NCBI GenBank assembly: GCA_031701365.1 | Contig: GCA_031701365.1_4118.1 | Length of the DNA stretch: 64,000 nucleotides | DNA from: Escherichia coli | GTDB taxonomy: Bacteria; Pseudomonadota; Gammaproteobacteria; Enterobacterales; Enterobacteriaceae | Strand: one strand, 5' to 3' | Shown: one piece after another, positions 47,620 to 62,227 of the stretch | Numbering within the stretch: position 1 is the stretch's first letter | Layout of the letters: the number at the start of each line of letters is the position of its first letter | Notes under the pieces: model-generated | Told to the model about the DNA's origin: nothing | The model's database searches: none | What the model saw: only the letters and a program-made list of their open reading frames with translations | Program-made: the position numbers and the translations under genes

Positions 47620-49556
47620 TTAAACACATATAGACAGGGGAAGCTCCGTAGTGGAAGCATTATACAGGCTTTAACATATGTTGCATATGTTAAAATTCAG
47701 CCTGGACAAATGCGATCACTAGGATTCTCCCCAGGCTAAACCCCGTAATCATAGGTAGTCATAAGTAATCATATATAAACATTTATATGAGCACAGTAGA
47801 ATCACAGAATGATTATATATGATTCAGTACTGATTAGTATAGACAAGATTGCTCAAGAATGCACGGAAATGTGTGTGAATGATTCAGTACTGATATGCCA
47901 CTAAGTAGGCAGAGGAAGTCTGCCGTACTTTGTAGTTTCCAAGCTCCTTTTCCATTTTGCAAATTACATCAAATGTAATCAAAAGTAATCACGCAATGAT
48001 TAGTACTGAATTATTACTTTCACCTTAATTTCAATTACCCCTTGAGGCTCCAGCAAAAAGTTGGTTAGTACTCCATCCTAAATCTCGATCCTAAAAATTT
48101 TGGAGTACCTATGAAATAAAAGTTGGATCTTCGAAAGTTGAAATTTACGTTGGGACATATAGGATTTGTGGGATATAATGAGTTTTGTAGCGATACAGAT
48201 TATACGATTTCAGTACTGAAAGATGAAAGAAAGTTATTGACTTTATGATTCAGTACTGTATAATGTTCTACATAGGGTGATGAGTTGCTGCGAACAATTC
48301 ATTTACTCTACCTCCTGTCGTGAGACAGTACAGAAAAGATAGTTCCTCCTGTGGTGGTACATCTTTTTGAACCTCATATGAAAATTGTAATAACAGTACT
48401 GATATTAACAGAATGGTGTCAGTACTGATTTTAATCTAAAGCATTATGCCACCAGCTTGTGCTGGTGGATTCCCTCTAACAGTATTCAGTACTACATGAT
48501 GGTCTTCATCCTCCTAGGGTAACATAGTGAGGGCTATGATGGCAGTACTGAATACTCCCTTTCAAAAGATAGATCTATGGTATAGTACTGACGGATTTTG
48601 GGTGTAGTTACCCTGGATGGATTTTGGGCGTAGATATGTCTAGCCCTCCAGAAGTCTGGAAGTAAAGATGGCTATCCATCTAGACGGCTAAACGGCTAGA
48701 TTTCTGGATGGCTGGATGGCTAGACGTTTGGACGGCTAAACGGCTAAACGGCTAAACGGCTAAACGGCTAAACGGCTAGATGGTTACACGTCTGGAAGTA
48801 TAGACGGCTAAATCAAAATTTTATTTTGTTTTTTCCAATAGTTCCCCTACCGCGTGGGGATAGTTTCCCCGCAGTATCAGGAGTTAGATTTTTCTGAATC
48901 TGGAATTATTATCTTATAAACTGGGGGCAATGTCAACGGCCAGGACGGATATTTTTAAAATTTTTTCAGTACTGAATTTTGGGCGTAACTATGCACCCGG
49001 TGGGCTTGAGTCTTTCTCGACTTGATGGAACTATTATACAGTACTGAAAAAATAAAGCAATACCCTGGAAGCAAAAAAGTTTTAATTAATTTGCTTGCTA
49101 TCCTGGGCCGGACTATGGTACTATATTTCAGTACTGAGAAAGTGCGTTGACCTGCTAGGGTGCGGGAGTGTATCCTTTTTTTATATCTTGAATTTTGGGC
49201 GTAATTCCGCACCCCCTGGGGTATCCGCTTTCTCGCGTCTATGTAGTAATTATACGCTTTTTCAGGATCAAGTCAATACCTAAAAACAAAATAATTGAAA
49301 ATAATTTAATGCGTTTAAACGGCATGTAACGCCCTGGATTGTTGGGAGTGGGGCAAATGTATAGCTTAGGTGTATTAATGCGTTAGAATGCGTCTGAGGC
49401 CGTTTTACGGGGTATAGGGATGATTTGGTGGATTGATTCAGTACTGAATAATAGTACTACTATATAGAAAGATAGTTCCCCTGGATGGTTGCAGTACTGA
49501 ATGACAGTTCCCCTATATAGAAAGAAAACTATTTTAAAAGTACATGTAGAAAGTAC
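47620..49556. other. ORF-free region of about 1.9 kb, dense in AGTACT palindromes and short repeats
   Basis: no credible ORF on the plus strand; more than 20 copies of CAGTACTG-like palindromes; contains the tandem 8-mer array and GCACCCGGTGGG-type elements. Confidence 0.6.
48732..48779. repeat. tandem direct repeat (ACGGCTAA) x5 plus one degenerate copy
   Basis: five perfect 8-mers followed by ACGGCTAG; degenerate copies (GGCTAGAT, GGATGGCTGGATGG, GACGGCTAAATC) flank it from about 48610 to 48815. Confidence 0.85.
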
Positions 49557-49616
49557 TTGCAAACTATGTTTAAAGGCGTATAATGTTTTACATCGAGAGC
49601 GGGAACTCTTCCCGCT
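49557..49616 (+). promoter_or_regulatory. PeSL-like promoter plus 5' stem-loop
   Basis: TTGCAA, 16-nt spacer, TATAAT, then GTTTTACATC and hairpin GAGCGGGAACTCTTCCCGCT. Confidence 0.65.
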
Positions 49617-49639
49617 ACACTTTAAGAGAGATTAATACG

Positions 49640-50002
49640 ATGGCGACTCAAATCACTAAAATCATGCTTAACCTGGTAAACTTCCGCGAAGAGATGAAAG
49701 GTCTTCCGGCTGAAACTGTAAAAATTCACATTGCAGCTTATCGGGAACTTATTGCAATGTTACCGCTTAAGCGTGAACAATACGCCGCTACTTTGATGCT
49801 TGATTCAATGATCCATGTAATGATCTCAAATGATTTGACGATGGTTTATCAGTACATGGGCGAAAATTTCGCGGTGAGTAGTAAGCCAGTACCAGGGATG
49901 GCAACTACTGAGGAATTGCACGGTTTAAATTTAAAACAAGATGCATGGGATAATATGCATCGTTTCCTGGTATGGGCTGACAGTGGCAAAATTTACAAAT
50001 AA
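49640..50002 (+). CDS. hypothetical protein
   Basis: start set at ATG 49640 (the track ORF begins inside the promoter hairpin). Confidence 0.6.
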   Translation: MATQITKIMLNLVNFREEMKGLPAETVKIHIAAYRELIAMLPLKREQYAATLMLDSMIHVMISNDLTMVYQYMGENFAVSSKPVPGMATTEELHGLNLKQDAWDNMHRFLVWADSGKIYK

Positions 50003-50016
50003 GTTTAATAAAGTAC

Positions 50017-50075
50017 TTGCATACTAAGTTAAAACAAGTATAATACTTTCTATCAGGTGGGGAATAGTCCCCCAC
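50017..50075 (+). promoter_or_regulatory. PeSL-like promoter plus stem-loop
   Basis: TTGCAT ... TATAAT, hairpin GTGGGGGAATAGTCCCCCAC. Confidence 0.6.
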
Positions 50076-50096
50076 TATAATTAAGAGATTAATTTT

Positions 50097-50330
50097 ATGA
50101 GTACTATTTTAACTGTTTCTCAATCCGTTGCACTGACTGACCTATTAAACGCTTTAAGCCGTTGCACTGAGGTTGGCTTGTTTGATGTGGTAGACGTTGC
50201 ACCGGACGTTATTAATCATTTTTGTGATGCGATGGAAGAATGTAAGGAAGATGATCGCCGTTTGATGCAGGTGACATTTGAGGAAGTACAGCCAGGTGAG
50301 ATCAAAGGTTTACCAGTACTGAAAAAATAG
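50097..50330 (+). CDS. hypothetical protein
   Basis: 77-aa ORF. Confidence 0.6.
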   Translation: MSTILTVSQSVALTDLLNALSRCTEVGLFDVVDVAPDVINHFCDAMEECKEDDRRLMQVTFEEVQPGEIKGLPVLKK

Positions 50331-50334
50331 TACT

Positions 50335-50392
50335 TGCAAACTAAGTTTAAAAGCGTATAATACTTTACATCAGGTGGGGAATAGTTCCCCAC
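50335..50392 (+). promoter_or_regulatory. PeSL-like promoter plus stem-loop
   Basis: TTGCAA ... TATAAT, hairpin GTGGGGAATAGTTCCCCAC. Confidence 0.6.
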
Positions 50393-50412
50393 TATATAAG
50401 AGGATTTAAAAA

Positions 50413-50652
50413 ATGGCTAAATCAAAAATGTTCTTAGGTCACAAAAACAAAACTCAATGGAATGTAAGCCTTTGGATTAATAACGATGAGGGATTGTATC
50501 GGTTGGCCCTGGACTTTATTGCCGCCAATACTAATCGCAATGATGCGGCCCGTCATATGATGCTATTTTTAGAACAGACTGGACAAGATAAAACACCGGA
50601 CGGATTCAAATATAGCACTACTGCGATCCGTGCGGCGATGGTTGGAATGTAA
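50413..50652 (+). CDS. hypothetical protein (paralog of the 52453 gene)
   Basis: 79 aa; shares GHKNKTxWNVSLWINN...TPDGFKYSTTAIRAAMVGM. Confidence 0.7.
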   Translation: MAKSKMFLGHKNKTQWNVSLWINNDEGLYRLALDFIAANTNRNDAARHMMLFLEQTGQDKTPDGFKYSTTAIRAAMVGM

Positions 50653-50738
50653 TAGAATTTATTTAAAGTACTATCATTTTTTTGCGATAGTACTTTATAA
50701 TAGTGTTTTATTCATACACCAACGATAAGGGCAACAGC

Positions 50739-61010: not shown

Positions 61011-61037
61011 TATTAATTTAATAGAGGATAACAATAA

Positions 61038-61361
61038 ATGTACATTCATACTACTATCACAAAGGAAGTCCGTTGCCAGTTCGAAAGTATTCCGGGCGTA
61101 TGTTTCATCACTGGTACGTTTTCCCCTGGTGATCGTGATAATCCAGTACTGTTACAATTACGCCATCCATCATGGGATAAAGCATTTGATCTACCGTTGA
61201 ATGAATTCGCAACTACTGCTGAAAAGTACATTAAAAATATTCGTGAGAATGATCGACTATTCATTAATGCTTTTAGTGATTCCACGTTAAGCGAGATCCA
61301 CGGCGTATTGGTTGCAATCATGGAATCAATGGAGAAAACTAAATTCAAACAAGGTGAATAA
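61038..61361 (+). CDS. hypothetical protein
   Basis: 107-aa ORF, RBS AGAGGATAA. Confidence 0.65.
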   Translation: MYIHTTITKEVRCQFESIPGVCFITGTFSPGDRDNPVLLQLRHPSWDKAFDLPLNEFATTAEKYIKNIRENDRLFINAFSDSTLSEIHGVLVAIMESMEKTKFKQGE

Positions 61362-61367
61362 AAACTA

Positions 61368-61427
61368 TTGACAATGTAATCTAGTACTGTATAATAAGTT
61401 ACATGAAGGGGAGAAATGATTCTCCCC
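61368..61427 (+). promoter_or_regulatory. PeSL-like promoter plus stem-loop
   Basis: TTGACA 61368-61373, TATAAT 61390-61395, GGGGAGAAATGATTCTCCCC 61408-61427. Confidence 0.65.
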
Positions 61428-61444
61428 ACTGAGAGGAAAGAAAA

Positions 61445-61657
61445 ATGCAAGGTCAACTAATCGTTCGTAAATGGTCTGATACTAATGAAAAACCGTGGGA
61501 TGTTCAATACATCGGACCGGATGGGGTATCACGTTATCAGCCTGGCGTAACGCATAGTACTGAGCAATATGCCACCGCTCACCGTGAACGCCTGTTAGAA
61601 TCTATGAAACAGGGATTCTGTGAAAAATTCATTCAAGATCATTGGCTGAAAGATTAA
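61445..61657 (+). CDS. hypothetical protein
   Basis: 70-aa ORF. Confidence 0.6.
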   Translation: MQGQLIVRKWSDTNEKPWDVQYIGPDGVSRYQPGVTHSTEQYATAHRERLLESMKQGFCEKFIQDHWLKD

Positions 61658-61763
61658 TAGAAGGAGTACAGCTTATGCAAATGAATCCGATGATTGTTGT
61701 GTTAGCTGTACTTATGATCATTCATGCCATCGTAGAAGTACTAACACAATCAGGAGTAATACA

Positions 61764-61934
61764 ATGATCCAGGTAGAATTATCAGTACTGAAAGATCTGT
61801 TTTATCGGTTAGGCACTACTGGCGAATACCCTAAAGGGGATACTGCTAAACTATACATTGCATTGGATGTATGGCAACGTAATGAACTGGCTAACGCCTG
61901 GCGTAAAGGTAAATCAGAGGGGATTGCAGCATGA
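61764..61934 (+). CDS. hypothetical small protein (56 aa)
   Basis: not in ORF track; RBS CAGGAG. Confidence 0.4.
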   Translation: MIQVELSVLKDLFYRLGTTGEYPKGDTAKLYIALDVWQRNELANAWRKGKSEGIAA

Positions 61935-62080
61935 AAGAATTTTTATTCGAAGTAGTGTTTCAAGGTGTCGGTAGTAACCAACTGATACGTTCAAGTGGTT
62001 ACAATGTTAACCAGGCATGGAATAACATTAAACAAATGTACCCGAACGCTATCACATATCGCAACCCAAAACAAGTTTAA
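61931..62080 (+). CDS. hypothetical small protein (49 aa)
   Basis: not in ORF track; ATGA overlap with previous ORF. Confidence 0.4.
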   Translation: MKEFLFEVVFQGVGSNQLIRSSGYNVNQAWNNIKQMYPNAITYRNPKQV

Positions 62081-62094
62081 AAAGAATTAAAAAA

Positions 62095-62119
62095 GGGATT
62101 GACTCCGGTCAGTCCCTTT
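62095..62119 (+). terminator. intrinsic terminator (GGGATTGAC-TCCG-GTCAGTCCC)
   Basis: variant of the recurring GTTGAC hairpin. Confidence 0.65.
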
Positions 62120-62227
62120 GCTATTATATATGCATAGAAACAAATCAGCCCACAGGGTGCATAAATGTATCTATTATATGCTGGTGGCTAGTACTATCAA
62201 GTACTGAAAACTATTTTTAAAAAGTAC

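Follow-up and report, generated by a model that had tools for sequence, protein, structure and literature searches.

The stretch of DNA analysed here, 64,000 nucleotides long and referred to below as the window (Escherichia coli, NCBI GenBank assembly GCA_031701365.1, contig GCA_031701365.1_4118.1), contains a family of short repeated elements, each of which is the conserved core of a 45–55-nt promoter-linked module of two hairpins; most likely, the family represents early phage RNAs of a kind not described before, and not a mobile element. By megablast, the region is 94–96% identical to jumbo coliphages of the Asteriusvirus type (ECO103 4-12-1, PBECO4, 121Q, G17, and others), and by its sequence the window derives from such a phage, a relative of PBECO4, 121Q, and G17. 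The record of phage vB_Ec-M-J carries an annotated "Direct Terminal Repeat" (DTR) of 21,525 bp, the first base of which aligns to window position 47904; the window therefore crosses the junction between the unique right end of the genome (1–47903) and the DTR (47904 onward). A small hairpin, GTAGGCAGAGGAAGTCTGCC, adjoins this junction at 47905–47924. Terminal redundancies have been described for G17 (~20 kb, from sequence coverage; PMC6563267), for CBB (22.5 kb; PMC5259590), and for the distant relative PA5oct, whose DTR of 39 kb is strongly transcribed early and expresses abundant noncoding RNAs (ncRNAs) (PMC7318152).

The DTR is the early region, that is, the DNA bearing the immediate-early genes. 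Its initial 1.7 kb is noncoding, and its content is otherwise a succession of small plus-strand genes, almost each of which has its own sigma-70 promoter and leader hairpin. The proteins encoded at 63507–63761, 60066–60323, 60387–60743, and 51751–52362 include matches to a ParE-like toxin (E = 3.6e-10), a DksA/TraR zinc finger (E = 5e-11), and a GNAT acetyltransferase (E = 4e-9), as well as a 203-aa protein of the family phrog_5162 (51751–52362), which has the motif SGF(C/W)SQGDGAS, is shared in conserved form by RaK2, GAP32, and CBB, and is widespread among unrelated phage contigs as well. The conserved DTR proteins were considered as candidate partners of the element and set aside, Pfam and PHROG yielding only the ParE-like, DksA/TraR zinc-finger, and GNAT types together with families of unknown function.

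Copies of the element in the terminal repeat

The core GCACCCGGTGGG, with up to two mismatches allowed, is matched eight times in the window against 0.55 matches expected, a number that none of 100 shuffles reached. Four of the matches read as written on the plus strand (48993, 49209, 51465, and 53630) and four inversely (51408, 58111, 59796, and 62149), and every one of them falls within 48993–62160. A covariance model (CM) built on 59 distinct copies returns the same eight sites at 30–53 bits, one degenerate copy at 18 bits, and nothing further. The initial annotation, which had proposed a repeated family in both orientations, is thus borne out with eight solid copies and a degenerate ninth; its core coordinates were all correct, although it overlooked the copy at 49209 (GCACCCCCTGGG) and counted in the degenerate one at 49155. 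The nine copies are listed below with their CM scores, coordinates on the minus strand being given in the direction of transcription.

48981–49060, minus strand: copy 1 (33.3 bits), directed towards the genome terminus and an array of 8-bp repeats; promoter TTGCTT-N16-TATAAT (49060–49033), first hairpin (hairpin 1) AGTC/GACT with loop GAGAAA (49022–49009), core CCCACCGGGTGC (49004–48993), 3' arm of the alternative helix reaching 48981.
49197–49276, minus strand: copy 2 (29.7 bits), convergent with copy 3; promoter TTGACT-N16-TATAAT (49276–49249), hairpin 1 CGC/GCG with loop GAGAAA (49237–49226), core CCCAGGGGGTGC (49220–49209).
49095–49182, plus strand: copy 3, degenerate (18.2 bits, E = 0.74); weak promoter (49095–49124), mini-hairpin CCT-GCT-AGG (49151–49159) with G plus TGC at 49160–49163 and without CCCAC, alternative helix AGGGTGCG/GGAG/TGTATCCT (49157–49176), then T7.
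51354–51431, plus strand: copy 4 (42.4 bits), convergent with copy 5; TG-extended promoter TTGACT-N17-CATAAT (51354–51382), hairpin 1 ATTG/CAAT (51389–51403), core CCCACGGGGTGC (51408–51419), 3' arm to 51431.
51453–51526, minus strand: copy 5 (41.3 bits), with a short A-rich leader; promoter TTGACA-N17-CATAAT (51526–51498), back to back with a plus-strand promoter at 51573–51600, core CCCACCGGGTGC (51476–51465), 3' arm to 51453.
53556–53698, minus strand: copy 6 (43 bits), a unit resembling a small RNA gene; promoter (53698–53670), hairpin 1 GAC/GTC (53658–53647), core (53641–53630), then AGTACTG, then a bidirectional terminator (53589–53569).
58049–58134, plus strand: copy 7 (53.1 bits), a collinear module; terminator hairpin with the −35 box inside (58049–58076), promoter (58056–58084), hairpin 1 TGAG/CTCA (58093–58106), core CCCACAGGGTGC (58111–58122), 3' arm to 58134; downstream, a second promoter (58189–58216) and then a gene (58268–58609).
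59739–59819, plus strand: copy 8 (44.5 bits); promoter TTGACA-N17-CATAAT (59739–59767), hairpin 1 GACG/CGTC (59779–59790), core CCCATAGGGTGC (59796–59807).
62092–62172, plus strand: copy 9 (46 bits), a collinear module with a short A-rich leader; terminator hairpin with the −35 box inside (62092–62119), promoter (62099–62127), core CCCACAGGGTGC (62149–62160), 3' arm to 62172; downstream, a Chi site (62180) and a second promoter (62228–62255).

The alternative helix of copy 3, together with the T7 run behind it, looks like an intrinsic terminator in sequence, and the orthologous copy in 121Q reads CCT-GCTA-AGG-TGC. Copy 6, whose unit (53698–53556) runs up to the upstream gene's bidirectional terminator, is predicted to specify an RNA of ~100 nt that is antisense to all DTR genes. 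Copies 1–3 sit in the 1.7-kb noncoding terminus beside the repeat array, which consists of ~20 tandem 8-bp units (AAACGGCT, GGATGGCT, AGACGGCT, and similar) at 48650–48810, ~750 bp from the genome terminus and just downstream of the leftward element-bearing promoters; the array, iteron-like in form, could serve as an origin or as a packaging signal. At 48594–48640 there are two degenerate repeats, GATTTTGGG(T/C)GTAG..., similar to the 3' part of copies 1 and 2 when that is reverse-complemented (TACGCCCAAAATTC); they may be decayed copies of the element near the terminus.

Promoter linkage and folding of the module

Read as CCCAYNGGGTGC, the two apparent orientations of the element are one object, with a near-consensus sigma-70 promoter on the same strand each time. 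Each of the 59 distinct copies, drawn from the window and from related phages, has a promoter that scores 8 or more of 12, and for 54 of them the score is 10 or more; the chance of meeting such a promoter at a random DTR position is ~3%, and a separate promoter scan concurs for seven of the nine window copies. The distance from the end of the −10 box to the core is 20–29 nt and bimodally distributed, at 21 nt or 25–28 nt. The family proposed in the initial annotation is real, non-random, and of a regulatory character. Since the DTR genes all lie on the plus strand, four of the eight solid window copies are antisense to them, as are four of the ten in vB_Ec-M-J and ~40% of copies overall.

The surroundings of the copies vary. 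Behind many of them a strong intrinsic terminator begins 45–51 nt past the start of the core, and for these an RNA of ~100 nt is predicted. Others form convergent pairs, in which two promoter-plus-element units face each other with their cores 54–86 nt apart (51408/51465 and 49155/49209 in the window); such pairs are also found in GAP32, CBB, and two other contigs, and are kept across genera. In the collinear arrangement, represented in the window at 58049 and 62092, a terminator hairpin with an embedded −35 box is followed by the element, by a second promoter 67–79 nt on, and by a gene. The initial annotation had seen three copies of one composite module of terminator, element, and promoter. 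Two of these (58040–58245 and 62085–62285) are indeed collinear, with the spacer AGTACTGAAAACTATTTT...AAAAAGTACTTGCAAA between the element and the second promoter, and their "terminator" at 58049 and 62092 is at the same time the promoter that transcribes the element (TTGACT-N17-TATTAT at 58056–58084 and 62099–62127). The third (51340–51625) shares only the element, the spacer, and the downstream promoter: it has no terminator hairpin, its upstream promoter is a different one (TTGACT-N17-CATAAT), and it includes a second, convergent element with a promoter of its own.

Hairpin 1 lies between the predicted transcription start ("CAT") and the core, and its stem differs freely between copies (GGAG/CTCC, AGACA/TGTCT, ACCG/CGGT, GCCA/TGGC, TGAG/CTCA, GACG/CGTC, CGC/GCG, and others) around a loop of 6–8 nt with an A/G-rich consensus (e.g., AGAACAA, GAGAAA, AGATAA, GCGAAA). 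Among 84 distinct leaders there are 23 different complementary stem triplets, and the leaders fold with −2.97 kcal/mol on average, where shuffles give −1.09 kcal/mol (Wilcoxon p = 8e-13). The core itself folds, according to RNAalifold, into a mini-hairpin R-CCC-AYN-GGG-U, the pairing of which holds in 97.9% of cells over 98 distinct aligned copies, with one double change counted there; the double change CCU...AGG is seen in three copies. In phages of Escherichia, Klebsiella, Cronobacter, and Pectobacterium alike, the stem and the UGC that follows it hardly differ, and it is the loop that varies (ACA, AUA, UAUA, UAGA, UCAA, AUUA, GUAA, AAAA), with loops of 4 nt in divergent jumbo contigs, at times beside loops of 3 nt within one genome.

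A strand-specific competing helix, in which G-U pairs abound, joins GGGUGCR to a downstream arm, typically UGUAUCU, in 91% of cells against 26–58% with a slid partner. Columns 24, 25, and 27 of this 3' arm vary by transitions only, which preserve G-U/G-C or U-A/U-G, and the equivalent of the helix on the opposite strand is unstable (+3.8 kcal/mol). The mini-hairpin and the competing helix are mutually exclusive, with mean energies of −3.8 and −3.05 kcal/mol, respectively. The competing helix is not the stable GC-rich hairpin with a U-tract that defines an intrinsic terminator: in most copies there are two to four U among the next 8 nt, and a U-run follows only in the degenerate copy (49157–49182) and in a few GAP32 and CBB copies.

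Other readings of the leader were tried and rejected. A 5'/3' closing stem, AUAGA/UCUAU, is found in some short-leader copies only. As a mini-open reading frame (mini-ORF), with GGGUG as a Shine–Dalgarno-like sequence and a start codon at columns 21–23 (often M-Y-L-stop), the module is not conserved, ATG, GTG, or TTG being present in 36 of 59 copies. Middle promoters of the T4 type combine a −10 box (TAnnnT) with a conserved activator box at −30, ~11–12 bp upstream of it, and have a transcript to express. If the core were such a −35/−30 box, the −10-like hexamer would be inconsistent, occurring after the core only in some copies, and the reading clashes with the terminators, which in the copies resembling small RNA genes would begin ~10 nt or less past the start site.

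Distribution of the family and other features of the window

In the closest complete relative, with a genome of 352 kb, a scan for exact or one-mismatch cores finds 10 promoter-linked copies, all at 302,392–321,138, and three further one-mismatch matches, none of which has a promoter context. The repeat also holds at genome scale by the CM, which gives 9 + 1 sites, all in 302.3–321.2 kb; this interval is homologous to the DTR, and the family is therefore restricted to ~6% of the genome. In IMG/VR, a pattern scan retrieves promoter-linked copies only from contigs of 345–378 kb, the matches on small contigs being without promoters and chance-like, and among 80 loci gathered through phrog_5162 the CM matches 12 from Rak2-like jumbo phages or related contigs and none of the 68 others. 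From these comparisons, the family appears to be confined to Rak2-like jumbo phages, namely Asteriusvirus, apparently RaK2, GAP32, and CBB, and further jumbo contigs, the only ones among other phage genomes from which the element was recovered. Bacterial and archaeal genomes (596 Gb), searched for the core plus 3' arm, gave seven matches in unrelated taxa, which is about the chance level, so the element is not a host repeat. A cmscan search of 47500–64000 against Rfam at E ≤ 5 gave four weak and unrelated matches, none overlapping the elements; a full-text literature search for the core sequence returned unrelated primers only; literature searches on the promoters, transcriptomes, and ncRNAs of Asteriusvirus, RaK2, and GAP32 turned up no account of the element; and ncRNA001 of the PA5oct DTR has no similarity to the module. 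The paralogous copies are themselves strongly diverged outside the 12-nt core (mean column identity 62%).

One copy, copy 8, is polymorphic between close relatives. It belongs to a 320-bp cassette (59736–60054) made up of a promoter, the element, and a further promoter, which ECO103 and G17 lack and on either side of which stands the 11-bp direct repeat GTTAAAATAAT; in ECO103, GTTAAAATAAT is the overlap of the stop codon of one gene with the start of the next, so that the junctions of the indel lie in gene ends, outside the element. By its sequence, this is a gain or loss of a cassette by short-homology (illegitimate) recombination and not transposition. Within the cassette, the segment 59855–60054 has a promoter, TTGATC-N16-TATAAT (59855–59882), followed by ~170 nt without a convincing ORF before the DksA-like gene, and may be another noncoding transcript.

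Beyond the DTR, the minus strand at 31562–43661 carries ~10 paralogous leftward genes of 358–433 aa, with non-sigma-70 motifs of their own upstream (TAT(T)AAATATAGTATAAT...AAAGGAGG), a terminator (GCCAGTAC-NNN-GTACTGGC and a T-run) behind each, and no sigma-70 promoters; this cluster looks like a late-type tandem gene family. The operon that follows the DTR likewise has its own promoter, at the DTR boundary. On these grounds, two further roles for the element were rejected: for the leftward copies, that of early promoters of the cluster at 31.5–43.7 kb, and for the last sense copy, that of a leader to the long post-DTR operon.

Several other features of the window may be recorded here. The hexamer AGTACT occurs 252 times in the whole window against ~22 expected (CAGTACTG: 54 against 0.7), most densely in 48000–64000; the related 352-kb genome has 919 occurrences, where 119 would be expected. 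It is found in the stems of terminators (GCCAGTAC...GTACTGGC), in the spacers of promoters (AGTACTGTATAAT), and behind the element: in 72% of copies, against a background of 37%, AGTAC(T) stands no more than 60 nt past the end of the core, and mostly 30–41 nt past its start. A global factor that binds or modifies DNA may recognise this motif. The E. coli Chi sequence (GCTGGTGG) is present nine times on the plus strand (48461, 55288, 59453, 60915, 62180, 63853, 4856, 21190, and 34147) and twice on the minus strand (48449 and 55226), against ~0.2 expected per strand, and clusters in the terminal repeat, in part straight after elements (62180), which would fit a role in protecting the linear ends against RecBCD. 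A segment of ~85 nt, ACAUCAGGACGGGGAAC...CUCCCCUGAU, lies between two strong promoters at 51606–51690 and again at 62261–62345, within a repeat (51537–51722 and 62192–62377) that is 87% identical, so that it occurs twice per Asteriusvirus terminal repeat; it is structured (about −19 to −20 kcal/mol over a 98-nt stretch) and noncoding, has no Rfam match, and may be another small RNA. Finally, a family of hairpins AAGGGTTGACTTCGGTCAGCCCTTT, each followed by a TATAAT-like box, is found at 13079, 16321, 16504, 17845, 18930, 24442, 25163, 27190, 58045, and 62090, the eight outside the terminal repeat standing immediately before ribosome-binding sites. These hairpins are terminator-like, with a TTGACT −35 box within the 5' arm and loop, and are composite terminator/promoters of the promoter-early stem-loop (PeSL) type considered below.

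Interpretation and known systems

The constant promoter strand, the covariation of hairpin 1, the tolerance of loop length, and the strand-specific G-U pattern argue that the acting form is a folded single strand, that is, RNA, the exposed non-template DNA strand being less likely. The antisense copies, the convergent pairs, the immediate terminators, the presence of ~10 copies per repeat (hence ~20 per virion genome), and the restriction to immediate-early DNA point to independent short and highly expressed RNAs, and the invariance of the stem across phages of Enterobacterales suggests a conserved partner of host origin. In the mechanism that we propose, strong sigma-70 promoters would drive RNAs with the 45–55-nt module at their very 5' end, consisting of hairpin 1 (a covarying stem of 3–5 bp and an A/G-rich loop, RGAnMAA) and, 3–5 nt after it, the mini-hairpin R-CCY-(3–4 nt)-RGG-U followed by GC, with GGGUG alternatively paired with a downstream Y-R-Y-C-Y arm. 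Accumulating as high-copy immediate-early RNAs and acting in trans, they would bind through the invariant hairpin, and titrate or redirect, a host factor conserved across Enterobacterales, for which components of the transcription or RNA-metabolism machinery are candidates. For the package as a whole, in which abundant immediate-early small RNAs or 5' RNA domains bind a host factor, we see the case as evenly balanced. A broader proposal, and a tentative one, is that all Rak2-like jumbo phages share a new RNA signal that would capture a conserved host protein. Candidates are an RNase, a defence sensor, Hfq/ProQ, and RNA polymerase or a termination factor, and the signal could work either as a decoy or by switching between the two folds under the control of the factor. 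The "protein-binding site" of the initial annotation may hold in the form of a protein-bound RNA hairpin, a site in duplex DNA being disfavoured.

A number of observations weigh against such RNAs. For Rak2-like enterobacterial phages, the transcript ends and abundance on which they depend are predicted ones; no terminator separates the collinear copies (58111, 62149, and relatives) from the promoter that follows, so that these copies would be 5' extensions of messenger RNAs, which suits a role in cis better; and the constant promoter orientation could in part reflect common descent of promoter-plus-element cassettes. The covariation of the mini-hairpin amounts to one to three double changes only, because its stem is almost invariant, and the competing helix, besides being weak, shows one-sided changes only. 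A search for complementarity to the E. coli rrn operon (16S, 23S, 5S, and three tRNAs) gave runs no longer than those of shuffled queries.

Among known systems, the lambda PR'-qut-tR' unit (6S RNA) yields a short RNA, with a conserved signal close to a strong constitutive promoter and a terminator shortly behind, and this layout resembles that of the module. The RfaH ops signal is 12 nt long, orientation-specific, invariant across Enterobacterales, and formed into a small hairpin in the non-template strand of the leader, with the consensus GGCGGTAGNNTG. The module aligns to it at best at 8 of 12 positions (GCCCATAGGGTG against GGCGGTAGCGTG), no factor of the Q or RfaH type was identified, and copy number and antisense placement differ from both systems. 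Likenesses to a DnaA box, Chi, Tus-Ter, sigma-54, CRISPR repeats, and tmRNA, judged by eye against consensus sequences, are partial or subfamily-specific and were set aside. Sponge RNAs of the CsrB/RsmZ type share with the module the reiteration of one short hairpin motif and strong expression (for the module, predicted), and PA5oct shows that the DTRs of related jumbo phages do make abundant early ncRNAs (PMC7318152). Unlike the sponge RNAs, the module has its motifs on separate transcripts, and what is conserved is the CCC/GGG hairpin and not the GGA, which is found in the purine-rich loop beside the core in about half of the copies. The put RNA of HK022, ~70 nt long, forms two long stem-loops from the 5' end of the early transcript (PMC9378689). 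Like putL and putR, the module is a two-stem-loop RNA directly past early sigma-70 promoters in both directions, and by analogy with put it would act as folded nascent RNA on the host RNA polymerase, independently of translation. The put RNA binds the zinc-binding domain of the RNA polymerase beta' subunit and suppresses termination in cis. It has two long irregular stems and a triplex, and in each of its two copies per genome it heads a long operon that is read through terminators, whereas the module is 45–55 nt long with stems of 3–5 bp, occurs in ~10 copies, many without downstream genes, and has no sequence similarity to put by eye.

A resemblance in genomic setting is seen with the PeSLs, composite terminator/promoter cassettes of T4-like phages (Arbiol 2010, PMC2839356; Comeau 2014, PMC4122927), in the regions of which cassettes are gained and lost through short-homology recombination (PMC4122927). 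Both kinds of cassette are repeated in a plastic early region, combine a near-consensus sigma-70 promoter (in the module, in 59 of 59 copies) with a stem-loop, and are linked to small orphan genes and to indels between close relatives, of which the module provides one example, and the PeSL description fits the hairpin-embedded −35 promoters at 58049–58084 and 62092–62127 as well as the promoter-plus-GC-hairpin units before most DTR genes. In a PeSL, however, it is a terminator that makes the stem-loop, placed ahead of the promoter or overlapping with it, and there is no conserved transcribed core, whereas the CCCAYNGGGTGC module lies downstream of its promoter, keeps an invariant mini-hairpin across genera, is combined with several promoter types, and is antisense to genes in 40% of copies. 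A PeSL-type upstream terminator is present at 58049, at 62092, and in many RaK2, GAP32, and CBB copies but not at 49004, 49220, 51408, 51476, 53641, and 59796, and the one indel that contains a copy has its junctions in the 11-bp repeat of the gene ends.

Of the other explanations, the foremost, control of elongation in cis, would have either a two-hairpin nascent RNA, as in HK022 put and lambda nut, or 12 non-template nucleotides, as in RfaH ops, modify RNA polymerase, be it for anti-pausing or antitermination or as a RAT-like switch in which a factor settles whether the mini-hairpin forms or, to its exclusion, the alternative helix, itself a weak terminator. The distance of 15–30 nt between the element and the predicted start of the early transcript recalls the placement of putL (PMC9378689), and the two-hairpin architecture with mutually exclusive and nearly iso-energetic folds, the U-run behind the alternative helix in some copies (49157–49182; GAP32 and CBB), the position of collinear copies ahead of genes in a DTR where terminators are common, the match of the ~12-nt invariant stretch to the size of a transcription bubble, and an invariance over phages of different Enterobacterales that fits host RNA polymerase or a Nus-type partner are all in its favour. 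We nevertheless consider it rather unlikely, given that the ~40% of copies antisense to all genes have no obvious target for read-through, convergent pairs would collide, and almost every DTR gene, as well as the post-DTR operon, owns a promoter, with a strong one 67–79 nt past the collinear copies making read-through redundant there; the self-sufficiency of the leftward cluster and of the post-DTR operon means that read-through is not obviously needed beyond the DTR either. Moreover, key ops bases differ in the 8-of-12 match to the consensus, and the two to four U past the alternative helix in most copies fall short of a terminator.

An operator in duplex DNA, at which a phage or host protein bound to the 12-bp core at about +15 to +35 would block or regulate this subset of strong promoters as a roadblock repressor, would account for the invariant 11–12-bp core with its internal CCC-N3-GGG inverted repeat, for a position just past the start site, as is usual in roadblock operators, and perhaps, through looping, for inverted pairs 54–86 bp apart; it is improbable in view of the coexistence of 3- and 4-nt spacers in single genomes, the CCT..AGG double changes within single copies, the strand specificity of the G-U pattern in the 3' arm, the covariation of hairpin 1, which it leaves unexplained, and an orientation to the promoter that is the same in every one of the 59 copies. 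A role in replication or recombination, through R-loops or primers at terminal-repeat origins (as at T4 oriE/oriF) or as a substrate for PeSL-like cassette shuffling, finds some backing in the position of copies 1–3 beside the iteron-like array at 48650–48810, in a G-rich RNA segment within AT-rich flanks, in the copy inside the 320-bp indel with its 11-bp direct repeat, and in surrounding promoter/stem-loop cassettes like the PeSLs linked to indels in T4-like phages (PMC4122927). This too is quite improbable: most copies have no iterons near them, R-loops need G-richness and not an exactly conserved hairpin, the indel junction is in gene ends and not in the element, and the paralogues are too diverged outside the core to serve as substrates. 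Least of all do the data suit a miniature mobile or recombination element (of the miniature inverted-repeat transposable element, MITE, or homing type), as the initial annotation had offered for consideration. Intergenic repeats in both orientations and one presence/absence polymorphism with a short flanking direct repeat would be expected of it, but individual copies have neither terminal inverted repeats nor target-site duplications, the family is confined to 6% of the genome and missing both from bacterial genomes (596 Gb) beyond chance and from other phages with a homologous neighbouring gene, every copy is functionally integrated with a promoter, and the divergence between copies is old, where recent insertions would be near-identical; we regard mobility as extremely improbable.

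The preferred reading, that of an early RNA family, bears on the Rak2-group phages of E. coli, Klebsiella, Cronobacter, and Pectobacterium, several of which have been proposed for therapy and which depend on the host RNA polymerase. The early genes in their 20-kb terminal repeats are almost wholly unannotated "hypothetical" ones, and a 12-nt core that is almost unchanged between genera sharing about one-third of their proteins indicates a strongly selected function that annotation pipelines have missed. Several stretches regarded as intergenic, and spurious small ORFs such as 51381–51599, are probably RNA genes. The ~50-nt module offers a concrete handle on how these phages take over, or evade, their hosts in the first minutes of infection, and, if the reading is true, it would add an RNA-based layer to host takeover.

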